Assembly: GCA_052327205.1 (NCBI GenBank)
Contig: CM126222.1
Coordinates: 51,026,001-51,090,000, forward strand
Length of the DNA: 64,000 nucleotides
DNA from: Somniosus microcephalus
Taxonomy: Eukaryota
Reading direction: 5' to 3'
Position numbers and translations under genes: made by a program. The notes below the pieces were generated by a model. It was not told the DNA's origin, did no database searches, and saw only the letters and a program-made list of their open reading frames with translations. Positions within the stretch are counted from its first letter, which is position 1. Each line of letters opens with the position of its first letter. Below are positions 17,023-53,426 of this stretch, piece by piece.

Positions 17023-18109
17023 CTAAGAAAGCAAAAAAAAATTAAGGTTTTGTACAAAGATACTTAGTACTGCTATTAGAGGTCTACAAAGGGCAAACAT
17101 CTGACAAATCTTTTAGATTATAAATCTATTCATTAATTATTCCCCATTTAATTATTCCCCATTTACTGTATATATCAATAATTTTGCAAAGCTATACAAT
17201 TAAAAAAAAAAGAAACAATATGTTCCCTTTTGTCTAGTCTTTATGGGCCATGTACCTCCTGCAGCTAAGAGGGCAGGCGGGTAAGCTAGCCACAGGCCAA
17301 AGCCATTGGCTACATAATGCAAGGACTGCGCATGGATACCTTGGGGTCAAAACTCTCTTCTGCTTTTCTTTCAGTATGAGGTACCTATTTTCCATTGGGC
17401 ACTTCACCATAGCAACACAGGTGAATAACTTAATGCAACAAAGGAAAGTTACCTATTCTAGTGCACTAAGCACTTCTGTAAAATTGAAAGCAGAAAATAC
17501 CAAAGAGAGAAACAAATGAAGGGCTGCAAATACTCAAACATAGAAAAGATGGATTCCAAAAAGTTAATCAAGTAACATTGATCCCACACTTTACAAGTAC
17601 TGCAGGCATAGGAGTTTGCATTTTATTTTTCAAAATTTATCTTGCTAATCTATATTCTAATTATACAAAATATGAAACTTAAATGATTTAAAGATTTTTT
17701 TTTATGCTCTCACTTTTACAGAACTGACTATACAGTTGGTAATCCAATGTAACAGGTCAGTGGAGAATTGGCCTCAAACAAGACAAGTGTCATGGTGCGA
17801 CCATGCATCTCCAAGAATGAACATAACCAGCATGGTGGCATGCTTGTGACATAAGCTTGCTGGAAAACATTGCTCTCAAGTTAGTAGTACTGGAATATAG
17901 GAACAGGAGTAGACCATTCAGCCCCTTGAGCCCATTCAATTAGACTGCAATGGATCTGTATCTCAACTCCATTTAGAAGTTGTTGGAGTAGGCCCAGTTT
18001 AAAAATAATTTTCTGATATTGATCTATGTTTTTGGCATATTTAGTTGAGCAATCATCAATTTCCTCTTGTATCATTTTGAAACATGGATTAGAAATGGCT
18101 AATAACTGA

Positions 18110-18595
18110 AGTTAGCTTTATTCAGTTGGTAGCACTCTCACCTCAGGGTCAGACGGTTGAGAGTTCAAACCCTACTCCAGGATTTGAGCTCAATCTTAGC
18201 TGGTACTCCAGTGCAATACTGAGGGAGTGCTGAATTGTCAATGTTGTCATTCTTAAATTGGGACATTAAACAGAGGCCTGTTCAGGTGGATGATAATTTT
18301 CAGCATTCTTCATCTAATGTAGCTATGAAGAATTACAGATCCCATGACACTTTTTGAAAAAGGCTGGTAAATTCTCCCAGTGTCCTGACCAGTACTTTTC
18401 CCTTAATGAATACCATGCAATAAAACAGATTAACGGATCTTTCATTTAATTATTGTTTGTGGGATCTTGCTGTGCACAAACTGACTGACATTTTTGCCCA
18501 TATGCAGTCACCTCACTTCAAACAAAGTGTGTGAAGCACTGAGATGTTGCTCACAGGTGTGATAAGGAGCTATATAAATGCAATCTTCCTTTTCC
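18110..18595 (+). mobile_element. DeuSINE (SacSINE1-like)
   Basis: tRNA-like head with GAGTTCAAACCC, same body as 6645-6970. Confidence 0.65.
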
Positions 18596-18876
18596 TTTCT
18601 AATAACTAATGCTTGTACTAAGTAATAAAAGTACATAAGAATAATATAAGCACATTTGTGACTAAATTAGGTGAAGAGCACAATAGATTACACAACCCAC
18701 TGAAATATTTCTAATTATTAATACAGATCATCTTGAACTTAACATGTTTAGTGTCTATGGACTGTATCTCAATATTGCAATATTTTTGTACAAATTTCCA
18801 GATTAGAAGGTTCATTTAATCTTGTCACAGGTGTTCTGCCCTCCCTGATCACATTATTAAGGGATCATTACCATAC

Positions 18877-19111
18877 CTTCTTCATTCAGCATGCAGTCAC
18901 AAAGCATTATCTCTGTGAACACTATGTCATTCATTAAAACCTTTCCCAGGACTGCACATGTGTCAACAGAGAGTGACTGTGTGGAGAGATCCAGCCTTTT
19001 CCTCACGTTCCCATCACAAGCATCGTGCAACTGATTCAGGACACATTCTTGTGGCTCAATACAAGTTTCTTTACAAAGGCGAAGGTAAGTTCTCTTGAAA
19101 TCATCCATCAT
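18877..19111 (-). CDS. LRRC45: LRRC45 first coding exon (exon acceptor at 19157, ATG at 19111 or 19108)
   Basis: Translates MMDDFKRTYLRLCKETCIEPQECVLNQL...LDLSTQSLSVDTCAVLGKVL...CMLNEEG, matching the LRRC45 N-terminus (human [27 protein letters not shown]). Donor G|GTATGG, phase 1. Confidence 0.95.
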
Positions 19112-19616
19112 TAAAATCTCAGTTAAACTTGCTCCAGTTATTCAATGTAACATTTTTCTGTGAAAAGGGCAACAAGCAAACATATTACCAGTGGGGTAGT
19201 CTGACATTACTACAATTATTTCCCTCTACTGCAGACCCTGTACCAACCCATGACTAAAGATAGACATTAACACAGTTCTCACATTACGGGGTAGAAACAA
19301 AAATGCAACTTGCCTGGGCAAGATAACATTCACATGCATTGCATGCTTCAACTGTTTTCAAGGAGGTAAAGATCCAACACAAGACTGCCTTCATTACCCA
19401 ACTTTAACTGTATATATATATATCGTCTCGACTGCCAGTGCTGTGGAACTTGCCCCACCTGTATTGTGGGGCAGATTGTATATGTGCAGTTGTTTAAAAT
19501 ATGCAGACTGTAACTTTCATTTCTAACCACTGGGCCTTCCCCAACGGCTGAGGAAGGTCCATAGAGCCTGGCAACTTCCAAACTTCATTGCTGGCCTGTA
19601 TAGATAGAATGAACAT

Positions 19617-19815
19617 TCAACAACTTACATTTATATACCGCATTTAACAGAAAAATGTCCCAAGGTGATCACAAAAAAGGATTCCAAGCTAAAGGAGGAG
19701 AAATTAGCAGGAGTGGCCAAAAGCTTATTCAAAGAGGGGAGTTTTAAGCAGGCTCTTAAAGGAGGAGAGGGGGGGGGCGTGGAAGGTTTAGGGAAGAAAT
19801 TTCAGAATGTGGGCT
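19617..19815 (-). mobile_element. L2-type 3' fragment
   Basis: Similar to 237-501. Confidence 0.6.
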
Positions 19816-19983
19816 AGATACGACCAGAAATAAGTGGCAATTTAGCCCCACAGAAAACAATCTCTTCAGGTGGATCAAAGCTCTTCCACGGGTAGTATTG
19901 CTGCAGTTGAAATGTGTTATCGGTTACACTGCTGTAGGTTAAATTCAACATTACTTTTCACCTTTTAAAGTAGAGTGTATGGT

Positions 19984-21646
19984 ACATAAGAACATAAGTA
20001 GGAGCAGGAGTAGGCCATACGACCCCTCGGGCCTGCTCCGCCATTCAATAGGATCATGGCTGATCCGAACTTAGACTCACGTCCACTTCCCTGCCCTCTC
20101 CCCGTAACCCCTTATTCCCTTATCAGCTAGGAAACTGTCTATCTCCGTTTTAAATTTATTTAATGTCGCAGCTTCCACAACTCTGAGGTAGCAAATTCCA
20201 TAGATTTACTACCCTCTGAGTGAAGAAGTTTCTGCTCATCTCAGTTTTGAAAGGGCAGCCCCTTATTTTAAGATTATGCCCCCTAGTTCTAGTCTCATCC
20301 ATCAGTGGAAACATCCTCCCCGCATCCACCCGATCAAGCCCCCTCACAATCTTATATGCTTCGATAAGATCACGCCTCATTCTTCTGAACTCCAATGAGT
20401 AGAGGCCCAACCTACTCAACCTTTCCTCATAAGTCAATCCCCTCATCTCCGGAATCAACCGAGTGAACCTTCTCTGAACTGCCTTGAGAGCAAGTATATC
20501 TTTTCTTAAATATGGAAACCAAAACTGTACGCAGTATTCCAGGTGTGGCCTCACCAGTACCCTGTATAACTGCAGCAAGACTTCCCTGCTTTTATACTCC
20601 ATCCCCCTTGCAATAAAAGCCAAGATCCCATTGGCCTTCCTGATCACCTGCTGTACCTGCATACTAACCTTCTGTGTTTCATGCACCAGGACCCCCAGAT
20701 CCCTTTGTACTGTAACACTTTGCAGTTTCTCTCCATTTAGATAATAACTTGCTCTTTGATTTTTTTCTGCCAAAGTGCATAACCTCACACTTTCCAACAT
20801 TATATTCCATCTGCCAAATTTTTGCCCACTCACCCAGCCTGTCTATGTCCTTTTGCAGGTTTTTTATGTCCTCCTCACTCACTGCTTTCCCTCCTATCTT
20901 TGTATCGTCGGCAAACTTGGATACGTTGCACTCAGTCCCTTCCTCCAAATCGTTAATATAGATTGTAAAGAGTTGGGGTCCCAGCACGGACCCCTGCGGA
21001 ACACCACTAGTTACTGATTGCCGACCCGAGAATGAACCATTTATCCCAACTCTCTGTTTTCTGTTAGATAGCCAATCTTCCACCCATGCCAGTATATTGC
21101 CCCCAATCCTGTGATTTTTTAATCTTGTGCAGTAATCTTTTGTGTGGCACCTCGTCAAATGCCTTTTGGAAGTCCAAATACACCACATCCACTGGTTCCC
21201 CTTTATCCACCCTGTTTGTTACGTCCTCAAAGAATTCGAGCAAATTTGTCAAACATAACTTCCCCTTCGTAAAACCATGCTGACTCTGTCCGATTAAATT
21301 ATGCTTATCCAAATGTCCTGTTACTGCTTCCTTAATAATGGACTCCAACATTTTACCAACCACATATGTTAGGCTAACTGGTCTATAGTTTCCAGCCTTT
21401 TGTCTGTCTCCCTTTTTAAATAAGGGTGTTACATTAGCAGTTTTCCAATCTGCTGGGACCTTTCCTGAATCCAGGGAGTTTTGGAAAATTACCACCAATG
21501 CATCCACAATCCCTACCGCTACTTCTCTCAAGACCCTAGGATGTAAGCCATCAGGTCCAGGGGATTTGTCCGCCTTTAGTCCCATTATCTTACCGAGTAC
21601 CACCTCCTTAGTGATTTTAATCGTGTTTAGCTCCTCCCCCCCTATA
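19984..21646 (-). mobile_element. 5'-truncated CR1 LINE (second subfamily)
   Basis: RT motifs in ORFs 20156-21603 (LDFQKAFD, GVPQGSVLGP, KFADD); tail repeat CATAAGAA. Confidence 0.95.
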
Positions 21647-22474
21647 GTACTTGACCTTAGTTTATAGCAAAGCTGCTAATATATAAATTTGACTAATGCT
21701 ATATTTTAAATTTAATTAAAAACAAAAATGTACCACCCACAACCTAGTGGAGCAATGCAACACATTACACCAAAAATTAGTATGGCACAAGTTTATTTCC
21801 TTAAATTTCTCATGTACTGATTTGATATCCTTATCCCTTGTAGCCAATAAATAGTAGTAACGAGAGGTTGAACACTTCTTCAGGGGGGTCAAATTGAATT
21901 TAAGTCAGTAGGTCAATTACTCCTGCCCATCTTTTGGATAGCTAGTTAGAGTGAGCTTAGTAGAGACCCAGGAACACAAAATATTTGCACCAGTGTCAGG
22001 GAATGGTGCATACCATAGTAAAATATAAAGAACAAATGTTCATTATCATGCCCCATACCAGCTTTTACCTCTGCAACCAAGTTACATTTCCATATTACCA
22101 CTTTATACATAGGTACAATCAAAATAGTAACCGTTAACTTATCTAACTGATCCTGGGTAAACATGTACTATCCTAAAATATTATATAAAATACATTTTTC
22201 CAAAACAACGATACATACATTCCACAACACGCCAGAGAAGATGAAATCTGATAAGATTCTAGGGTTAGCTCCTGTGTATTTCGCATACGCTGGACCAACT
22301 CGTATTACAGAGTAAACAACACGAGACTCAATGGGTTAAATTGTGTCGGTTGCATAAGGAGCTGATAACAGCGGCCTGGCCGGCGCCAAAAATGTCCAAA
22401 GCCAAACGAAATGGAGTGTGCCAGATAACTTTTAAATCGTGTAACAGAGAGGGGGGGGGAAGCATACGTGGCGG

Positions 22475-22610
22475 AGAAAAACGAAATACTGCGGGCGCTG
22501 AAAATCTGAAATAAAAGCAGAAAATGCTGGCAACACTCAGCAGGTCAGACAGCATCTGTGGAGAGAGGAACAGAGTTAACGTATCAGGTCGATGACCCTC
22601 CATCAGATCA
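22475..22610 (-). mobile_element. Penelope-like terminal (pLTR-type) fragment
   Basis: Shared with 47715-47914 and 24365-24455; contains a degenerate CTGATG...GA(A/T)ACGTT motif. Confidence 0.55.
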
Positions 22611-22899
22611 GAGAAAAGGGAAGAACTGTTAACAGGAAGCTCTCGAGTGCTTGGTAGAGAAAGTCGCTGTGTCAGAAGCAGCTGAGACACACACAAACCG
22701 GTAACACAAGCTGCACAACTTTACAACAGCACCTTAACCCCAAAGAATGACCACTAAAAACAACTTTACAACACAGCGTAAACGGCACACGAACCAAAGA
22801 ATTAACGAGTCCCAACACCAGAGCAACACAAACTCTCCAGTGACGGGAGAGGAGAACAAGATTGAAGCCTGGAGACCCATCGCAGGGCAGTCTTTTTAC

Positions 22900-24080
22900 C
22901 TTTAAACAACTGGTTCTAAACAGCCAGAATGCGGCGAGCAAGAGAGGGGTGAAGTTTCAGGAAGGCGTTGCCGGACAGGCAGTCTCAGCACGGCTCAGTG
23001 CAGGGATACAGGGTAGCCCGGCACTCTTGTCCATTACCCCTCGGTTACCTGGCATCAATTCACTAGTTACCGAGTTGTGTGTGAGGGAGGCGGGGGGGGG
23101 GAAGCTGTGGATAAACTGTCCAGCTGACATGAGCAAAGCTGCGTGTTTGTGATCAGGTTAAAGTACATTTGCTATACTGACTCCATTGTTTATCACTTAC
23201 ACACACTCTCCCCCAGCAGCAGCAGCGGCGACTCTCCCCGGCCCGGTGGCTCGAGCGCCGCGGCCGCCCCGTCTCCATGCAGCGGGGCATTGTGGGACGA
23301 GCAAGTACTCGGCCAATCCATGGGCGAGGGGGGTGGGGGGGGGGCAGGTGCCGTGTGCGCTCGCGCACCAAGCCTTCTGGGAGCTGTAGTCTCACTCGTC
23401 ATTGCCGGGGCCGCGCGTGGATTGGTCAGCGGACTACATTGACCGGCAGGCACTGCGCCCCCGGGCAGGTCATTCGGGGTCATAACCGAAAACTGGACTC
23501 CCAACAGAAAGAGGCAGAGCGCCATCCTCAGCGCGAGGAACTGCAGCCGAGTGCGCGGAAGGGGCTGACATTTTGCTCCTTCGAACGAAATATGAGTAAG
23601 TTGCAACGAAGTTGTGAGAAAAAGCACCGTTTTTTAAAAAAATATACGAAATGGTAGGAACACACAAGCATTTCAAGATGCAAATTGTGAGAATGCGCTT
23701 TGGTTAGCGGTAACTCGAAATATCAGCCAGCCGTGCTGCACTTGCAGTGATTGTTTCGCTTTTTTTTTTATTTCACTGAAGCACTTAACAGGTCACTTAA
23801 CCCCCACCCCCCAAGTAAAGTTTATTTTAAAAAAAAACTTTTTTTTTTGAGAAGCACGAAAATGGCAGACAGGAGAATCCGCAAGGCTCGTTTCAGCAGC
23901 CGCGACCTGTGTGTCCTGGTGGACGCGGTCATGGAGAGACGGGAGGATATCTTCGGCAGGGGAGGCGAGCCGCCCGACATGCAGAGGAGGCGCGATGCAT
24001 GGCAGGACGTTACAGACCGAGTCAATGCCGTTTCCGGGACTCGCAGGACCTGGGAGGAAGTCCGCAAGAAGGTCCACGAC
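22900..24080. promoter_or_regulatory. CpG island / putative bidirectional promoter
   Basis: GC/CpG-rich. TGGGAGCTGTAGT at 23378-23390 (ACTACAnnTCCCA ZNF143/THAP11-type motif), divergent CCAAT (~23313) and ATTGG (~23421), NRF1-like GTGCGCTCGCGCAC at 23355-23368, G-rich boxes. Lies between two divergent genes. Confidence 0.8.
23201..23330 (-). other. LRRC45: Probable non-coding first exon of LRRC45 (5' boundary approximate)
   Basis: Minus-strand donor GT|GTAAGTGA at 23200/23201 inside the CpG island. The ATG exon has its own acceptor at 19157, so an upstream UTR exon is required. Confidence 0.55.
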
Positions 24081-24098
24081 TTAAAAAAAAGCACAAAG
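23862..24098 (+). CDS. Myb/SANT-like (Harbinger-type trihelix) DNA-binding protein, coding exon 1
   Basis: Kozak AAAATGG. MADRRIRKARFSSRDLCVLVDAVMERREDIFG...RRRDAWQDVTDRVNAVSGTRRTWEEVRKKVHDLKKSTK|gtaagg shows the RF..E/D..L, W..V/I...VN and RT..EV.KK..DLK pattern of NAIF1/MSANTD/MYPOP-type domains. Confidence 0.88.
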
Positions 24099-24579
24099 GT
24101 AAGGTAGGCATGCATAGCCCTTGTCAGATAAGGAGCAAGCATTGCCAGGGAAAGTTGCAACAATTAGAAATGCAAACCCCCCCCCCCCCCCCCAAAAGCT
24201 CTGTAGTGATCAGAGAAATGTTAGCAACAAGCATTAAGAATAAGGATTAAGGAATAAGAATTGAGCATTAAGAATATCACCATCTCGTCTCGTTTTGAAT
24301 AATGTCTCTTCACTTCTTTTGTTCTGTCCCAGCCCTGCCTTTAGATCTATTTCATTTCCTTTCCAGTTTTGAAAAAGGGTTAGACCCGAAACGTCGACTA
24401 ATTTCTCTCCACGGATGTTGCCTGGCCTGCTGAGTTTTTCCAGCATTTTCTGTTGTTAAGAATAAGGGTTTATACAAGTTTCATTATTCATTGCTATGAC
24501 AGGAGCATGCATCTACTGCAGCAAGGCAGTTTCTTAGGTCAATTTACTGTCTTAGACCGCTATACTCTTACTTTTGAAG

Positions 24580-24742
24580 GAAAAACTCGCTTATAATAGA
24601 AGATCATGGCAGGCAGCGGGTGGTGGTCCCCCAGATGTCAAAACGTTGACGGAATTTGAAAATGATATGATCGTTGTGTTTGGAAAGGAGAGTCTTGAAG
24701 GCCTTCGACCTGTGGATATTGGTACAATGCCAAGACATATTC
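24580..24742 (+). CDS. Myb/SANT-like protein, coding exon 2
   Basis: ttttgaag|EKLAYNRRSWQAAGGGPPDVKTLTEFENDMIVVFGKESLEGLRPVDIGTMPRHI|gtaagt. The GGGPP...LT..E motif typically follows Harbinger Myb domains. Phase 0 to phase 1. Confidence 0.85.
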
Positions 24743-24895
24743 GTAAGTAATATATTATTCAGGTATTCTGTTATTTGCACAAAATATTAAATGAACATGT
24801 CCATACAAGCAGGTTATTTTGTATGAATGACAGTGCAGCACCCAAATGGATGTGTGCTTATGCACTCATAATGTATGCTTTTTCCCTTTTCAAAG

Positions 24896-25668
24896 CACAA
24901 AGAGAGCACAGTGGACTGCATGTTGCATCAGCAGAAGAGCAACATACACCTGAATGCCAATTGTCACCGGTCCCATTTGAAGCAGGCACCAGCACAGAAA
25001 CACCTCTGGTTAGAGGTATAAAGGATGAGAATCAGGAAACACCAAGTGAGTCACTGAGCACTAGTGAAGAATGGGAGGAAGTGGTGGTGGGTGATGAGGG
25101 GACAACTGTTGAAGCATGGAGACCCAGCATGGTAGGTGCCCCTCCTGGGCTGGATGCAGTTACAGACCTTAATGGGCCTGCTTTCAAACGGAGGCTGTTA
25201 GAACATGGGGTCCGTGTTGAGCAGTCACTTGCCTTCATGCACACCACTTTGGAAGATGGGATGGTTAGGTTGGACCAGCGGTTGTCCTCATTGCACTCTG
25301 CCATTGAGCAGATGGCAACACCAGTGGCATCTGCAGTAGAAACCTCACTTATGCAAGCTGTAGGCACAGCAGGAGCATCTCTTATGAATGCTCATTGTGT
25401 TGCTATGGAAGCTTTGGGATCAAAACTTAAAGAAGCAGTCATGGCTGGTTTTGATTCACTAGGAGAACGGTTACATGTAACCATGACAGAGGGATTCAAA
25501 AATCTCATTGAAGCACAATGTTCTACACTTACACAGATGATTGCGTATTGTGAGGAGATGCCCTCCACCAGTGGCATGAGTCAAGTTCAGGCAGTTGACA
25601 CTCATGTCAGTACTAGTTCTGTGCCACCACACATCTCTGCACAAGTAACAGGGAGGGTAGTAATTTGA
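24896..25668 (+). CDS. Myb/SANT-like protein, terminal coding exon (acidic linker plus helical C-terminus)
   Basis: ttttcaaag|CA CAA AGA... restores the frame of the 297-aa ORF 24775-25668. Stop TGA followed by AATAAA at 25674-25679. Spliced CDS 1173 nt = 390 aa. Confidence 0.8.
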
Positions 25669-26994
25669 CAAAAAATAAAAATATGCCCCATTATGGTTAT
25701 GTATTCTTGAACTCTTAACGTAAAAAAATCTACTGTACTTTAAATTCAAAATAGCTGCAGGCATCACCCTGTTTTCTTGGTTGCCATATTCTACTTCAGA
25801 GGGTACCTTTTTGAGAAGTGTTGTTTCAAACCTAATTAACACCACTGTGCATTTAAAAAGATGTCCCAGTAAACGGGGTGATATTGTTGTGTGATGTAAC
25901 ATCCATGTTAAGGTTGTACTTGAAAATATTTATACCTTTAGGCTGTAGATAAGTTAACATTTGGGAGTAGCATCCACAAACTTACCTATCTACCATTTAA
26001 CTCAGGACAATGTATACTTAATTCTGCATTACCATTCTATAGTGTTTTTTGTAACATTGTATTGCAGCAGTCTAGTTAAAATTGTGCCATTGCTAATTGT
26101 TGGCTGGAATTAATGCTGTCCTGCTCCAGGCAATTATTCACCCTCATTGTCAAATGCAATCTCATCATGGTTGGCTATAAAAATATACTTAAAATGCATT
26201 AAAAGAAAAATATAGCTCAAACTTCACGTTTGAAACCCTGCTAAAACCTGAAAAAGAGGCATTTCTAGAGTTAGTGCTGGAAAAGTATTAAAGAGTCGGT
26301 TTTAAAACAAAAAGACTATTTCCAAATGTTGCAGGAACAGATCCTTTTTAACCTCAGATCAACTGCTCCAAGAACATTTGTTTTAATTTAAGGCTGTGTA
26401 GTATTAACCTAATGTTTTTATGTGTGCAATTTTATAAATAAATATTGCAGTCATTTTCACCTGTACAATTCTGGCCCTGTGTTTGATATTTTGCTATTTC
26501 GAGGAGACTGACTATGTGGAACACAGTTCTATACAATCCAATGTGCACTTTACTGCATTTAGGGTAACTTTTTTAATCCAGGGTTGCATAATCTCTGCAA
26601 AGCCAGAAGACTTAAGGCATATGCTAATGGATCATGGGAGACCAGGTCAATTCATAGGACCTGTAGTGAAGCTGTTGAAGGAGAAAATATTGTTAAAAAG
26701 CCTAACGGCATCACGGAAACATACTCAAAAAAATAGTTCAGTTTACATATTTTCTTCCAAGGGGCTGTGTAATTCAACTTTTTCTGTAGCTTGAGCAGGT
26801 GGCTCAGCCAACAGTGAAGTTAAATTCAGTTGAATGAAAAGAACTTTCTTTGAAACAAAAACAATTGCAAGCACAACCATGCTAATAAAGCTTAAGGTAT
26901 CAATGTATTCATCTGGTATGCACTGTGTAATCAAATTGTACAATGGCTTCATTTCGCACATGGTAGTCCCACGTCTCGAACAGGAGCATAAACA

Positions 26995-28170
26995 CTCCGA
27001 AGTAGTGTTGGAACCAATGACATGGGGAAGAGCAATACAGAGGTCTCAAAGGGAGTTTGAGGAGTTGGGTGTTAGATTAAAAAACAGGGCCTCAAGGGTA
27101 TTAATTGCAGAATGACTTCTGGAGCCCCACATTAGGTCAGGTTAGGAAGGAGCAGGTTAGACATCAACATGTGGCTTGACAGTGTAGAAGGGAGAATTTC
27201 AGATTTCTAGGACATTGGGATGAATTATAGGGAGCAGCTCCACACACAGGGTGGAGACTTCATCTGAACCAACCAGAGATGTTAAGGCAGTCCCGAATAG
27301 TAAGCTTAAGGAGGGCAATGGAGAGAAATAACTTGGGGTAAGATAGAGAGGTAAAAAGAACTTGCATTTATATAGCGCCTTTCACAGCCTTAGGATGTCC
27401 CAAAGGTGTGTAGTCACTGTTGCTTTGTAGGCAAATGTCGCAGCCAATTTGTACGCAGCAAAGTGGCAGAAGTAACAGTTAGATAAATGGCCAGTTAATC
27501 CATTTTTGATGTTGGTTGAGGGATAAATATTGGCCAGGACACTGGAAGAACTCCCCTCACCTTCCAATAATGCCTTGGAAACTCTTGTAGCCATTTGGGA
27601 CCTTGGTTTAAAGTTTCACTGTCAGTACAGCACTGAAGTGTCAGCCTAGATTATGTCCTAAAGTGCCTTAAGTGGGGTGGAAGTGCTAGCACTGAGTAAA
27701 AATCTGACATTTAAGGGTAAGGAGAAGAGTACTGAAGACATAAATGGAAAGGATGCCAAGATGTCTAAAAAGGTCACCGTTGTAAAGGTTATATGTGAAC
27801 ATACAAAATATTAGAAATGAAGTCAAGGAACGAGAGACACTAATTAGAATGAGGAGACATGATATAACCTCAACAAAAACTTCGCTTCTGCCTGGATGAT
27901 ACTGGAAACTAACATATTTGCACTTGTAAAACTTAGAGAAGGGAAAAAGGGAGGAGTAAACTTATTGATGAAGGAATAATTAGCCATAAAAATATTTTAT
28001 TGGTGGTATTTAGGCAGTCTGATAGTTAAGAAATATTAAGGGATTTATTAATATGGGATATGTCATAATTGCCAAATAGTGGGAAAGAAATAGATTTGTA
28101 GGTGATTTAGAGGTTATCAGCAGTAACCAGAGTTCTAATAATGATTCTGTCTAACATAAGGTAGTTGCAT
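26995..28170 (+). mobile_element. Highly degraded CR1 (ORF1 esterase and endonuclease remnants) with a nested DeuSINE at ~27352-27700 (minus)
   Basis: GGAACCAATGACAT...REFEELGVRLKNRASRVLI matches the ORF1 segment at 9663-9760. Confidence 0.7.
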
Positions 28171-30632
28171 TAAGGCAAAGGTTTGTGGTCAAAATGAGGT
28201 CCCTTGTCTGTATCCTAATGGCAAGCACCCATGCACTAGGAATGTATCTAGGCTATCCGATAGGATGGAAAATCAGGTAGTCGCTGCTGGGGTGGGTGAG
28301 GTACTAGGGGCCGGCACCCCTCGAAAGAATGCTAAAGTTACAAAGGGGGCCGGATTTGAAAAGTGTTTTAAAATGATAACCTTTTACTTTGGGTTACCAA
28401 ACCTGGGCCTACATTTTCCATTTGGCAGCCTCTCCTGTCAGAACCTCTTCACAATTTTAAAAACTATTAAATGGAGAGAGATGGGCTTAGGGACTTAGGT
28501 CTGTCTAGCTTGCTGGACAAGGGAAAGGAGGAGAAGCAGCTTAACAATTGGTCTCTACCATGGCAATGAATTTTCTCACACTCGTTAGCCACAAGGGGGC
28601 AGTGGAGAGGTGTTTAAGGAGCCAGTTGCCAGTGGAGGAAAGGAAGCTGAGCTTATCTTTCCCCTCCAGGATGATCCCAGAGTTCTGGCAGAAGAGGTAA
28701 ACCATGATCTGGAGCTGGATCGGGTATGCTCAAGTTTGCAAACCTGGGGCTGGAGGGGATGAAGATGGGGGCAATACAGGGATAGGAGATAAAGGCTTGA
28801 AGAAATCAGACAGAAACAGTTAGGTATATTTATGCATGGTTAAGAAAGTAGGGTTTAGAAAGGGACATGCTGCACCCAAACCAGATTGGTATCAATGTCC
28901 CTGAATTGATGATATATAGGGCAGGGAGAGGGATAAACAAAAATGGCAATTAATAAAGACCAAATCAGAAATGCATATTAAAATGTGTCTATATGATTGC
29001 TAGAAGTAGCAAGATGACTACACTTGAGCCTGTTCTGACAGTTGGAAACTATAATGAAGGGGTGCACATGCAACTGAGATCTAAGAGTGTCAGGAAATGG
29101 TGTGGTGAGGGGAAGAGAAAATTTATGAATGAATTAACAAACCCAGGAATGGATGGAAATTGGTTCCAGGGAGGGCGTGCCAACCAACGCAAAGCCTCAG
29201 TGGTGACAGGACAAAGCATAAGCCCCGTGAGAAATAATTGTAAATAAAAAAAACTTTAAGGCTCTCGTAATCCGAGCTGGTCACCTCAATGCATCTACGG
29301 TGGAGCCAGGCCCGGGAGGTCTCAAAAATAAGTCAGCAACAGTACTACCTTTATTGGCTTAAGTTATGCTTGGAGGAGCATGAATGCTCCTTCTAGCCCC
29401 ACAGAAATAAATCTTACTTTTGGGCTCCTCTTTCATTGGACCACCTGCTGAAACTGTAGAGCATGCACAGTGCCCTCGCTGCTCCATTCTGTCCTAAATT
29501 GGCAATTGGGGTCCTATGTACATCATCAGACCTCGATTTGCATATTGAAGGGGCTTCAGCTGCCCTACAGTAGGCCCCTTTGAAGGTGGTTGCGACCAGC
29601 GCCAATGAGGTGCTATGTCATTGCTGGGCAGCTACCACCCCATTTATGACAGGTGGCCGATGTTAGAATCTAGCACAAAGTATGGAGAACTGAGGCAAGT
29701 TACAGCAACAGAAAATTGCGACAGAGATTGTGTGATACCAGCATAACTGACACTATCTACAATTTTTTTTTGTAAGTGTTGCATCTGTAGTGTAAGACTA
29801 CAAATATATAATAGAAAGATTACTAAGTGAGAAGTATGTTAATGTTAAGCCACATCTCCAAGTTTTTCCAAGTACTTGAGCATATTACATTTTCTTTGAT
29901 ATTTGTCCTTGAATGATTAAATTGTTTAAGTGGTAAAAAATAATTGTGCTGACTTCCTGAGTCATCAGCTGTTGACCAATTCAATGATGCAAAAGTAGTC
30001 TTTCAACAGCAAGTCATGATACTGCTAATTAAGGGCGCACAATTCTTTTCAAATGTTTGTGCTTCAAAGCTGGCTGTTTTCTGCACTTGCAAACACTCTT
30101 GAAAGAGTCTGTACACAGACCAGCCCACTGATTATCTTGGCAACAATGAAGTTAGTGAACAGTTAAAGGGGTGCGTGGTTGGAATCTTCAGTGACCCTGC
30201 TGTCATTTAGTTGCTGATTGTATCAATGCCCAGGTGATCAAAAAATATTAATGTACCATCATCCTTCAAGTGCAACATTACTTCACAAAGGGCCCATATT
30301 CAATGGCTCATCCTCCGCCATTTCCGCCACCTCCAGCATGATCCCACCACCAAACACATCTTCCCCTCCCCTTTCAACATTCTGAAGGACCGTTCCCTCC
30401 GCGACACCTTGGTTCACTTCTCTATTACCCCCAACGCCCACTCCCCTGCCCACGGTACTTCCCCATACAAGCACAGGAGATGCAACACCTGCCCTTTTAC
30501 CTCCTCCCCACCGTCCAGGGCCCAGACACTCCTTCCAGGTAAAACAGTGATTTACTACTTGTACTTTCAATTTGGTATGCTGTATTCCCAGCTCACGATG
30601 CAGTCTCCGCTACATTGGGGAGACCAAATGCA

Positions 30633-31637
30633 GATTTTTTTAAAAATTGTTTATGGGATGTGGGCGTCGCTGGCAAGGTCAGCATTTATTTTCCTCAAGA
30701 AGATGGGGGTGAGCCGCCGCCTTGAACTGCTGCAGTCCGTGTGGTGAAGGTACTCCCAGTGCTGTTAGGGAGGGAGTTCCAGGATTTTGACCCAGCGACG
30801 ATCAAGGATCAGCGATAAACTTCTAAGTCAGGATGGTGTGTGACTTGGAGGCGGTGGTGTTCCCATACACCTGCTGCCCGTGTGCTTCTAGGTGGAAGAG
30901 GTCGTGGGTTTGGGAGGTGCTGCCGAAGAAGCCTTGGCGAGTTGCTGCAATGCATCTTGTAGTTGGTACATACTGCAGCCACGGTATGCCGGTGCTGGAG
31001 GGAGTGATTGTTTAAGGTAGTGGATGAGGTGCTAATCAAGCGGGTTGCTTTGTCCTGGATGGTGTCGAGCTTCTTACGTGTTGTTGGAGCTGCACTCATC
31101 CAGCCCGTGGAGCGTTTTCCCTCATTGACTTCAGTTTTACTGGGGCTCCTTGATGACACCACACTCAGTCAAATGCTGCCTTGATATCAAGGGCTGTCAC
31201 TCTCACCTCACCTCTGGAATTCAGCTCCTTTATCCATGTTTGGACCAAGGCTGTAACGAGGTCAGGAGCTGAGTGGTCGTGGCAGAACCCAAACTGGGCA
31301 TCAGTGAGCAGGTTATTGGTAAGTGTCACTTGATAGTACTGTCGATGACACTTGGCATTTCTGGCTGAAGAGCCTTGTCTTTTGCACTCACGTGCTGGGC
31401 TCCACCATCATTGAGGATGGGGATACTCATGGAGTCTCCTCCTCCCGTTAGTTGTTTAATGGTCCACCACCATTCACATCTGGATGTGGTAGGACTGCAG
31501 AGCTTTGATCTGATCCGTTGATTGTGGGATCACTTAGCCCTAGCTAAATCATGCATGTAGTGCTGTGTTGTAGCTTCCCCAGGTTGGCACCTCATTTTTA
31601 GATACGCCTGGTGCTGATCCTGGCATGCTCTTCTCAT
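30633..31637 (-). mobile_element. Non-LTR retrotransposon fragment (CR1/L2-group, separate family, internally deleted)
   Basis: WMSAAPTTRKKLDTIQDKATRLI...HSLQHRHTVAAVC resembles a LINE ORF2 C-terminus; interrupts the YIGET-containing frame. Confidence 0.7.
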
Positions 31638-31938
31638 GGGGTGACCGCTTTGCGGAACATCTCCGTTCACTCTAAGCGTGTCCGAGCATCCGGTCGCCTG
31701 TCATTTTAATTCTCCGGACCACTCCCACCTCGGCCTCCTACACCGTTCCAATGAAGCTGAACGTAAGCTCGAGGAACAGCACCTCATCTTTCTCTTAGGC
31801 ACTTTACAGCCTTCTGGACTCAACATTGAGTTTAACAATTTCAGATCACAACCTCTGCCCCCATTTTTTCAGATGCCAGCTGTGACTGATGATTCTGATA
31901 TTCCCATTTATACCTCCTCTCGACCCATCTTTTGTTCC

Positions 31939-33565
31939 GTTGTACGGCCCTCCTCTCTGCTCCGTTACGTCCAAGGGACGCAGACTTGAATGAATATAGC
32001 GGACAACTGGTTTAGCCATTCACCGCCAGATCTGGCTGAACCACATAAAGCATTATCAGGTCCTGCTCGCTGTCAAAATTGCTCACTATTCCAGAATCTT
32101 TCTGGAATGCAAAGGTAAACACCGGCTTCTATTTTCCACTGCTAACCGTCTTTTTAAACCCCTCTCCCGTCTCCACCCCATCATCTCCGACAACAAGTGC
32201 GAGAAGCTCACAGACTTTTGTGTCTCCAAGATTGAGACCATCCGTTCAGCTGCCTTTGCCACTTCCCTTCCTTCCCCTAGCCCACCGGGCAAAACTTCCT
32301 CTAAGGTTCCCCCCGCCCTCGCTCTGAACTCGCATCTTTTTCCAGTTTCTCTCTGCTCTCGATCTTGTCCATGGGACCCATTTCCTATTCCCACCAAACT
32401 GCTGACCACCCAACTTCCTTTTCAGGCTCCCAGGTTAGCTGACATTGTTAATGGTTCTCTCTCCTCGGGTACTGTCCCCCTCTCCTTCAAATCTGCTGTC
32501 ATCACCTCTCAAAAAACCAACCCTTGACTCGTCCATCCTTGCAAACTACCGCCCCATCTCCAACCTCCCCTTCCTCTCAAGTCTTTGAACTTGTCACTTA
32601 CCAAATTTGTGCCAATCTTTCCCGCAATTCCATGTTTGGAGAGATTCAATCAGGTTTCCGCCCTTGCCACAGTACCGAAACGGCTTTCAGCAGTCACAAA
32701 TGACATCCTTTGTGACTGTGACAAAGATAAACTATCCCTCCTCGTCTTTCTTGACTTGTCTGCAGCCTTTGACACGGTTGACCACTCCATCCTCCTCCAA
32801 CGCCTCGCCACCGTTGTCCAGCTGCGTGGGACTGCACTCGCCTGGTTCCATTCTTTTCTACCTAATCATAGACAGAGACTCACCTGCAACGGCTTCTCTT
32901 CCCACTCCCACAGCATTACCTCTGATGGCCCCCAAGGAGCTATCTTTGGCCCCCTCTTATTTCTCATCTACATGTTTCCACATGTACGTCGACGACACCC
33001 AGCTCGACCTCACCACCACTTCTCCCAACCCCTCCCTGGTCTCTAAATTGTCTGACTGCTTGACCGACATCCAGTTCTGGATGAGCAGATATTTTCTCCA
33101 ATTAAATATTGGGAATACTGAAGCCATTGTTTCGGTCCCTGCCACAAACTCCGTTCCCTAGCCACTGACTCCATCCCTTTCCCAGGCTACTGTCTGAGGC
33201 TGAACCACACTGTTCGCAACCTTGGAGTCATATTTGACCCTGAAATGAGCTTCCGACCACATATCCGCGGCATAACGAAGACCGCCTATTTCCACTTCAA
33301 CATCGCCCGTTTCCGCCCTTGCCTCAGCTCATCCATTGCTGAAACCCTCATCCATGCCGGTTACCTCTAGCCTTGACTGTTCCAACACACTCCTGGCTGG
33401 CCTCCCGCATTCTACTAGTCTTTCCTCCTTTACAACGCTCCTTAAAACCTACCTCTTTGACCAAGCTTTTGGTCACCTGCCCTAATTTCTCATGTTATTG
33501 TGTCAAATTTTTTTTAATACTCCTGTGAAGCACCTTGGGACGGCACTGTATAAAATACAAGTTGT
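31939..33565 (+). mobile_element. L2 LINE (RT region plus tail)
   Basis: NYRPISNL, LDLSAAFDTVDH, PQGAIFGPLLF, YVDDTQL. Confidence 0.9.
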
Positions 33566-37665: not shown

Positions 37666-38110
37666 CTAAAGCCATGTAAAGGATAGCTATTATTATACAT
37701 GATATATCAAGGATTATTATTATATATCCAGTAGACATTTAAGACAAGCCAGGGTTTAAATGCAATGTAATTTCCACTCCTCCACAGAAAGTTGTTTTTT
37801 CAGGTCTCAACTCAGATTGTCATTTAAATGATGTTTGCAACCTGTCTGCCAAAGACTGTCAGCAGCAGAGAAAATTGCCAGCCTTGTTGACTCTGAAAAC
37901 CTCGGGAGAGGGAATCAAATGCTAAGCAGGAGTTGACCAAAGGCATAAGCAACAAGGTAAATTTTCACGAGTTTTCAGGACCCCATTTTAACCTCCGTTA
38001 TAAATAGAACAGTGCATAATTCCTCTAGTACTTGTCAAAATAGGAATTAAAAAGAAAGTGGATCTCATAAACCATGTGTATATATAAAATAAGGGACAAA
38101 TTTACTATAC

Positions 38111-40151: not shown

Positions 40152-40364
40152 CCCCACCTTTTCTAACTTTCTTAAAAGTACTTTTGACAGCCTATTATGC
40201 TGTTTTGAACAGGATATAAATAATACTGAGCATTCTTGGTATTTGAACTGCATCACACTGGCCACACGAAGTCATCGTTACTCAAGGCATCAATTTCATA
40301 TACTTTGCTTCATATAACAGTGCATTTGTGGCAGATACTCAAGGACAAGTGATATGGTTTTTAC

Positions 40365-40444
40365 CTTCCTCAAGCTGGGAAAATGCCTTTGACAGAGACT
40401 TCACGTCATCCTTGGGAATTTTGTATGCCATCATTGCAACAAAA
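40365..40444 (-). CDS. ABCA5: ABCA5 exon
   Basis: FVAMMAYKIPKDDVKSLSKAFSQLEE with AG/GT flanks. Confidence 0.93.
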
Positions 40445-53334: not shown

Positions 53335-53426
53335 CTGACCAGCTGATGGTTCCAAGTCTCCCGTGATCACAGAAATAGTAGTGCTTTTCCCAGCACCATT
53401 TGGACCCAGTAATCCCAGAACTTCAC
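53335..53426 (-). CDS. ABCA5: ABCA5 exon (NBD2 Walker A)
   Basis: (G)[30 protein letters not shown]. Confidence 0.96.

Follow-up and report, generated by a model that had tools for sequence, protein, structure and literature searches.

A probable domesticated Harbinger Myb gene of sharks and rays with a still legible transposon ancestry

Introduction

The Myb-like protein of Harbinger transposons binds the terminal inverted repeats (TIRs) of the element and its transposase (PMC9392472, PMC9179366), and domesticated relatives of this protein bind DNA or join chromatin complexes (PMC9392472). Among them, NAIF1 and MSANTD1-4, which are found in mammals, arose some 500 or 430 million years ago (PMC9392472). 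Known vertebrate genes of this type are too old for DNA alignment with their source elements. Here we describe a three-exon Myb/SANT gene, referred to as the window gene, from a 64,000-nucleotide stretch of the Somniosus microcephalus genome (assembly GCA_052327205.1, contig CM126222.1, forward-strand positions 51,026,001 to 51,090,000). The whole stretch is called the window, and coordinates count from its first letter unless another contig is named. The window gene is very probably an intact host gene of sharks and rays, kept by purifying selection and derived from a Harbinger Myb gene, and its product is likely a nuclear regulator that binds DNA or chromatin and is predicted to be oligomeric.

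Like NAIF1 and MSANTD1-4 as described in PMC9392472, the window gene is a Harbinger Myb-derived host gene that keeps the trihelix domain at a single locus under negative selection, with no adjacent transposase. It differs from them in being found in sharks and rays only, in having a sister paralogue, in a long helix without match outside elasmobranchs, and in that its source family, introns and a remnant of a terminal repeat can still be aligned as DNA. With the Myb protein of autonomous Harbinger elements (PMC9179366, and the young shark elements L059, L064 and L068) it shares a Myb domain, the position of the first intron behind that domain, a GGG motif, an acidic linker, a GP(A/S)xK/RR motif and amphipathic helices, as well as a GGGC..ATTTT-type terminal repeat about 300 bp upstream. 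Unlike those elements it has neither transposase nor right end, exists as one copy under purifying selection, and has a transcript that reaches into host promoter DNA. Plant HDP2, ALP2 and SANT1-4, as covered in PMC9392472, are likewise domesticated Myb partners and suggest a chromatin-adaptor role, but they work with co-domesticated transposases, whereas a search of 64 kb around the window gene and of 30 kb around its paralogue found none.

We therefore regard the locus as an elasmobranch domestication of the known NAIF1/MSANTD-like kind, apparently undescribed: the accessible literature searched, including text of PMC9392472, PMC9179366, PMC5741667, PMC10027918 and PMC12088426, holds no description of either gene or of the CDADC1 tail discussed below. 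With it come two candidate regulators specific to elasmobranchs, which databases either leave uncharacterised or name NAIF1/MYPOP-like. Source family, introns, terminal repeat and a transposase-bearing copy are all legible in one genome, and therefore the putative promoter capture, transposase loss, paralogue formation and exon capture can be traced stepwise. Most such cases are less informative, since here the ancestor, co-opted at three loci, can still be read.

Gene model and encoded protein

The window gene lies on the plus strand. Its coding exons (23862-24098, 24580-24742 and 24896-25668) join into 1173 nt that encode 390 amino acids (aa) and a stop codon. Both introns run from GT to AG, in phases 0 and 1, and the start codon has A at -3 and G at +4. 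The original prediction, made by a model from the letters of the window, had proposed this uninterrupted three-exon frame with a strong Kozak context, and splicing the exons in silico bears it out. As it also remarked, the stop-to-stop list of open reading frames (ORFs) holds just two disconnected pieces (23751-24107 and 24751-25668).

Exon 1 encodes a basic arm and the trihelix Myb/SANT domain (aa 1-79), and matches Pfam Myb_DNA-bind_5 (PF13873), the family the prediction had named (E 3.4e-17; 62.6 bits against a cut-off of 21.7). Exon 2 (aa 80-133) carries the end of the recognition helix, the GGGPP motif and a fourth helix, and exon 3 encodes an acidic low-confidence linker, a long helix (aa 228-354, at 25177-25557) and a short tail up to the stop. 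No family was above cut-off in a Pfam scan of exons 2 and 3. Intron 1 (24099..24579, phase 0) occupies the transposon's own intron site and its 3' part is transposon-derived, and intron 2 (24743..24895, phase 1) is inherited from the transposon. Intron 1 also contains a very high-copy short repeat at about 24300-24458, an inverted 55-bp copy of which lies at 22512-22566, upstream of the promoter.

Descent from a decayed Harbinger family

A search of the 6.4-Gb genome with exon 3 gave 138 matches among 148 scored of 11,748 candidates, namely the window gene, a second intact gene on contig C8 and 136 others, genomic copy counts here being lower bounds. Nineteen of the twenty best-ranked other copies contain stops. 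The window gene itself has one exact genomic copy and no near-identical dispersed copies; its next relatives are 79% and 58% identical, followed by copies at 52% or less that are mostly broken. The decayed copies (fossils) are 22-33% from their consensus at non-CpG sites and have star-shaped relationships, and the family looks extinct.

A DNA profile built from the fossils alone matches the window at 23633-24105 (E 1.3e-31) and 24467-25652 (E 1.6e-238) and recovers both intron sites of the window gene. The fossils can be aligned to each other and to the window from a GGGGC..ATTTT-type end, which falls at 23561. A matrix made from 10 element ends gives a score of 9.0 at this position against 5.9 for the next best in a scan of 23201-23861, so that a decayed left TIR of the ancestral element is placed at 23561..23576 on the plus strand. 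It is followed by a 5' untranslated region (23577..23861) that is transposon-derived by its fossil-profile match and is covered by transcript contigs of runs X9 and X10. The 5' untranslated region, the three exons and both intron sites thus descend from a decayed, dispersed Harbinger family, and the window gene is almost certainly a domesticated Harbinger Myb-like gene.

The fossil-profile match stops at 25652; the 3' part of the element and its right end are lost in the window. A repeat search of 18000-32000 found no flanking TIR pair, the longest inverted pair being a common repeat, and a transposase profile built from the genome's own transposases has no match in the 64-kb window. Of the earlier statement that the gene has neither transposase nor TIRs around it, the first half therefore stands for the window, and the second gives way to the decayed left end near 23561. 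The C-terminus had not been recognised as that of NAIF1, the MSANTD family or MYPOP; no bony-vertebrate match was found for it, and since exon 3 is shared with the fossil family and, by remote matches, with young Harbinger families, it is the transposon protein's own helix. The young families have the same layout, as in L064, with 16-bp repeats 4.4 kb apart. At fossil locus L099 the 3' end of the family runs directly into a broken convergent DDE transposase and then the right terminal repeat, and L130 is a weaker case of the same linkage.

In a tree of Myb domains (28 rows) a starred clade (96/93) unites the window gene and the C8 gene with two fossils, and the young families fall outside it; this tree is without NAIF1, MYPOP and MSANTD1-3, and its fossil rows are long branches that meet. 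Two fossils of equal score, L028 (C2:173323492) and L029 (C2:173384679), lie 61 kb apart in opposite orientation, probably as a local inverted duplication.

Orthologues, taxonomic range and selection

A protein search with exon 3 matched 14 proteins among 548 candidates, nine of which, isoforms included, belong to the window gene. Identity over exon 3 is 95% in Heptranchias, 88% in Cetorhinus, 85% in Mustelus, 84% in Scyliorhinus, 80% in Stegostoma, 78% in Chiloscyllium and 74% in Pristis. A cluster look-up adds Heterodontus and Pristiophorus, so that orthologues, as sought by the original prediction, are found in nine species (eight sharks and one sawfish). In three full-length shark orthologues compared with that of Heptranchias the Myb part is 94-97% identical and the helix 83-92%. 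For Heptranchias, two accessions on two contigs give an identical protein (P0001), either a recent duplicate or an assembly duplicate.

Compared with the sequence from run X20, the window gene shows 22 synonymous and 11 non-synonymous changes (pN/pS 0.155, p 2e-7); this uses 33 of about 42-44 differences, and pN/pS would be 0.31 if all 11 unlisted ones were non-synonymous. Against X9 and X10, the differences listed are 10 synonymous and one non-synonymous (pN/pS 0.03, from a partial list). With values of 0.03-0.31 across comparisons, not near 1, the gene is under purifying selection.

All 18 matches of the full-length protein trace to sharks or rays and none to a bony vertebrate (7,997 candidates scored), and a C-terminal profile matches 10 among 1.84 billion proteins, again all from sharks or rays. 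Bony-vertebrate orthologues such as NAIF1, MYPOP and MSANTD1-4 possess are therefore absent from both sets of matches (0/18 and 0/10). Among predicted proteins, no chimaera sequence was matched in the exon 3, full-length, C-terminal profile or CDADC1-tail searches. We consider it likely that the gene is restricted to elasmobranchs. The suggestion of a possibly chondrichthyan-specific gene holds as to restriction to one lineage, and its range, judged by annotated proteins, is drawn more narrowly. The elephant shark is reported to have no Harbinger elements in the available text of PMC9179366, which names other cartilaginous fishes as a gap to test; this absence fits capture on the elasmobranch stem.

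Conservation of position is indicated on both flanks. The X10 contig starts at 23499 and covers 62 bases of host flank upstream of the old terminal repeat, and the tail of a short basking shark isoform maps 12-15 kb downstream in the window, at 37839-37910 and 40327-40389 (plus strand; tblastn, 71% identity each, E 9e-6 and 1e-6). The latter matches support, at the level of sequence, a basking shark gene at the same genomic position.

Transcripts, isoforms and 3' end

The junction 24098/24580 is present in transcript contigs of X9 and X10, in which both introns are skipped exactly at the predicted sites. The junction 24742/24896 occurs in contigs of X9, X10, X16 and X19, in one of X20 that differs by two letters, and in raw RNA reads bearing the species label of the window (four in X21, one in X22). 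In the X16, X19 and X20 contigs the end of exon 1 is a loose end ahead of exon 2. Splice joints are thus found in five of five contig runs (five organism codes, five studies), which are RNA by guess only, although joints lacking the introns are what RNA yields, and the second junction in both raw RNA runs. The window gene is expressed as a spliced mRNA, as Harbinger Myb-derived host genes are.

Together with the trihelix domain, the single conserved locus and negative selection, splicing gives the gene the attributes of such host genes, and those of an autonomous PIF/Harbinger element (a transposase gene, a TIR pair, near-identical dispersed copies) were not found. The original prediction of an independent domestication is upheld by the single copy, the orthologues, purifying selection, splicing and the lack of a bony-vertebrate match, and nothing contradicting it was seen.

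The 3' untranslated region (25669..26450, plus strand) has no fossil-profile match and hence is not transposon-derived by profile. The X9 contig extends to 26448 and the X10 contig to 26349, and a signal scan finds an AATAAA at 26437, which is likely the poly(A) signal in use. The AATAAA right after the stop codon, to which the prediction had pointed, is present at 25674, but it is probably not the signal used, because X9 and X10 carry a change in it at 25677 and their contigs continue well past the site.

An internal splice donor, GTGAGT at 25046..25051 (plus strand), would yield a short Myb-only isoform that lacks the long helix. For both paralogues, short isoforms are annotated that depart from the frame where this donor has its counterpart, and their tails are unconserved; no joint was seen there in the transcript runs compared. 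In X21 and X22 raw-read depth falls to near zero just past 25046-25051.

Sister paralogue and the CDADC1 tail

The second intact gene (L033, C8:6124721-6122175, minus strand) encodes 426 aa with the same intron sites, and retains the element's original C-terminus plus part of its 3' end. It stands head to head with a host gene, whose first exon we take to be FBXW11/BTRC-like, on a CpG island bearing ACTACAnnTCCC motifs, and no transposase was found beside it in the 30 kb searched. Annotations of 15 species of sharks, rays and skates include a C8-type orthologue, and both genes are present in the same three transcript runs. In a tree of 19 rows with CpG-prone columns omitted, the two genes form the only starred clade (97/96). 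Between them dN/dS is 0.28 overall; by region it is lowest in the Myb part (0.14), followed by the helix (0.22) and the linker (0.59). The pair may go back to one domestication followed by a move or to two insertions of one sub-family.

Two further ideas about the paralogues were dropped. Positive selection on their shared stem gave 25/347 changed 0-fold sites against 9/221 4-fold and intron sites (Fisher p 0.15), so the shared changes show no enrichment for altered amino acids. A segmental duplication including the promoter was not convincing, as the upstream regions, which are GC-rich, align with a score of 87 where shuffled sequence reaches 80.

One of the 10 C-terminal profile matches is a skate CDADC1. 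Its tail in turn matches 14 proteins among 1,495 candidates, all of them shark or ray CDADC1. In S. microcephalus eight upstream stretches of CDADC1 map in order on C14, and the last exon (C14:29226486-29227343, minus strand, L054/L136) is a 288-aa open frame that matches the fossil profile (E 2e-46) and retains motifs of the helix, including P A x K R R and L G S K ... G F ... L G. By its sequence, the last exon of shark, ray and skate CDADC1 derives from the helix of the window gene's Harbinger family, so that the half of the Harbinger protein that does not bind DNA was reused as the tail of an enzyme. Human CDADC1 forms trimers and hexamers, and its deaminase domains end at residue 476, according to the portion of PMC12088426 available. 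Shark and ray CDADC1 shares both deaminase domains (PF00383, PF14437) and differs in long isoforms of about 630-800 aa with an extra Harbinger-derived C-terminal exon.

It would be attractive, and is quite improbable, that the shared helix lets both Myb proteins assemble with CDADC1, the dCTP deaminase that carries it as a tail, taking the deaminase to chromatin or to Harbinger ends. If true, one Harbinger family would have been captured three times in the shark-ray ancestor with the helix as a shared docking module, and the assembly would be a lineage-specific control system in transposon-loaded genomes.

Predicted structure, function and alternative explanations

In the predicted structure an N-terminal helical domain, modelled with confidence, is followed by an acidic linker of low confidence (118-222) and then by a single helix of 127 residues (228-354, pLDDT about 80-92), so that the trihelix, GGGPP motif, acidic linker and helical C-terminus described by the original prediction are all recovered in model or sequence. 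Residues 5-121 of the model compare best with the DNA-binding domains of Sap1 (Z 9.0, rmsd 2.8, 91 aligned), Zeste (Z 7.9, rmsd 2.0, 72 aligned) and GT-1 (Z 7.0, rmsd 4.9, 80 aligned); the structural comparison barely covered the long helix. The first match of a protein-atlas search is probably the protein's own cluster and the others are generic PF13873 clusters, and a search of PDB sequences with the family profile gave no match at E <= 1. The hydrophobic period of the helix is 3.5-3.6 in its first third and 3.67-3.75 beyond (heptad-like, then 11- to 15-residue). Periodicity of this kind suggests that the long helix may form a coiled coil.

The following sequence of events would account for these features. 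The element would have inserted with its left end beside a housekeeping head-to-head CpG promoter, and this host promoter, acting through the old terminal repeat, may now drive the window gene. Both paralogues would have arisen from a single ancestral copy or sub-family before sharks and batoids diverged. The trihelix domain and basic arm would bind DNA, probably at sites related to the ends of the old element, the 127-residue helix would form a homotypic coiled coil or one with the co-expressed paralogue, the acidic linker may recruit cofactors, and the captured housekeeping promoter would give broad expression. A nuclear DNA-binding oligomer is favoured in view of the partners of the element's own protein (terminal repeats and transposase) and of its domesticated relatives (DNA or chromatin complexes). 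We lean slightly towards a DNA-binding regulator that works as an oligomer.

Several observations weigh against this account. Concerning descent, only one of 64 fossil loci (L099) joins the family to a transposase contiguously. A convergent transposase match lies within 3.5 kb downstream at 11 of the 64, but at least four of these 11 are younger insertions, 85-97% alike to young elements; counting loci was therefore dropped as evidence for the link, and L099 and, weakly, L130 are relied on. At 0-fold sites the two genes are 0.18 and 0.17 from the fossil consensus, nearly as far as the fossils themselves (0.20-0.22), and therefore the sampled fossils may, judging from sequence, be a sister sub-family rather than the direct source of the genes. 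Changes shared by the paralogues relative to the fossil consensus number 47 in exons against 14 expected, and 3 against 3.3 in introns, and simple duplication does not fully explain an excess confined to exons. Concerning the host gene, protein searches and the cluster look-up found no orthologue of the window gene in skates or Narcine, and raw-read depth in X21 and X22 is 0-4, with exon 1 uncovered and junction 1 not seen. Concerning function, Z-scores of 7-9 are middling for helical domains, Foldseek gave no match at E <= 0.001, and in the recognition helix a position occupied by Phe in young shark elements and by Leu in the fossil consensus is Val in both genes, which may weaken the core or the DNA contact.

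Two other functions are each unlikely in our view. The protein could be a domesticated brake on Harbinger, binding the ends or transposases of live families as a decoy or recruiter of silencing instead of regulating ordinary genes. For this speak the very large Harbinger load of the genome (96,622 first-look candidates for the transposase family, with 150 of 150 scored exceeding the cut-off), the binding of TIRs and transposase by the element's own Myb protein (PMC9392472, PMC9179366), and the helix-less short isoforms annotated for both paralogues. Yet the Myb domain is just 34-48% identical to those of the young families, the family it belongs to, whose copies are 22-33% from consensus, looks extinct, and 94-97% identity of the domain among sharks suggests a fixed host target rather than an arms race. 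Alternatively, the protein could have become an adaptor that no longer reads DNA, its SANT-like domain binding HARBI1, histones or a chromatin complex and its helix serving as a scaffold. NAIF1 binds HARBI1 and plant Harbinger Myb derivatives reside in chromatin complexes (PMC9392472), and both the Val of the recognition helix and the capture of the helix alone by CDADC1 would agree with such a role; against it, the N-terminal arm and the recognition helix, both basic, show no variation in either paralogue, and the nearest folds are DNA-binding domains, the SANT domain of ISWI reaching only Z 5.0. A DNA-binding regulator remains our preferred reading of the function.

As to identity, a diverged shark orthologue of NAIF1, MYPOP or an MSANTD is very improbable. 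RefSeq labels the C8-type protein of Carcharodon 'nuclear apoptosis-inducing factor 1', short isoforms are labelled MYPOP-like in Heterodontus and Leucoraja, and the Pfam family is in common. However, the full-length and C-terminal profile matches trace without exception to sharks and rays (18/18 and 10/10), and a gene 500 million years old would hardly be expected to descend, as DNA, from a fossil family that can still be aligned. The two genomic loci in the Myb tree that we take to be MSANTD4-like and FSBP-like sit elsewhere in the genome, on long branches outside the clade of the window gene. The named genes moreover span jawed vertebrates or sarcopterygians, and because NAIF1 spans jawed vertebrates (PMC9392472), the RefSeq names of NAIF1 type are best read as domain-level transfers. 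An ordinary transposon copy, intact by chance or youth, is practically untenable: thousands of young Myb ORFs exist in the genome, but this gene has one exact copy, its nearest relatives are at 79% and 58% and the remainder decayed, there is no transposase in the window, and orthologues under purifying selection already refute it.

Putative promoter region, neighbouring genes and other Harbinger loci

Upstream and head to head with the window gene lies a leucine-rich repeat (LRR) gene on the minus strand (LRR_6 exons), and downstream an ABC-transporter Walker A exon is found at 53406, also on the minus strand; we take these neighbours to be LRRC45 and ABCA5. A protein-atlas search with the neighbour exon returned generic LRR clusters only. 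The LRR gene has an apparently non-coding first exon at about 23234-23296, and its first coding exon (18860-19141) appears to lie some 4 kb away, with a LINE fragment between them. The LINE remnants of the window had been described as all broken; Pfam RVT_1 and endonuclease fragments in separate short ORFs agree with this, decay having been checked that far.

The DNA between the two genes (23180..23560) is a putative CpG-rich head-to-head promoter region of the host, with a CpG observed/expected ratio of 0.81 in 22001-24000. One X10 contig ends at 23296 and the window gene's own X10 contig begins at 23499. A motif scan places a ACTACAnnTCCC motif at 23379-23390 (minus strand) within this region, a motif tied to bidirectional promoters (PMC3082894).

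First-look candidates in the genome number about 93,000-97,000 for each of the transposase and Myb families, many with intact frames, and this large load bears on the gap named in PMC9179366, the available text of which reports the elephant shark to be without Harbinger. Two further Myb_DNA-bind_5 ORFs, L144 (C11:46525960) and L145 (C1:164473288), pair on long branches off the young families and are possible domesticated genes. A Harbinger-type Myb protein of 412 aa (P0022), in one 90% cluster from whale shark and zebra shark, is possibly a younger domestication in carpet sharks.

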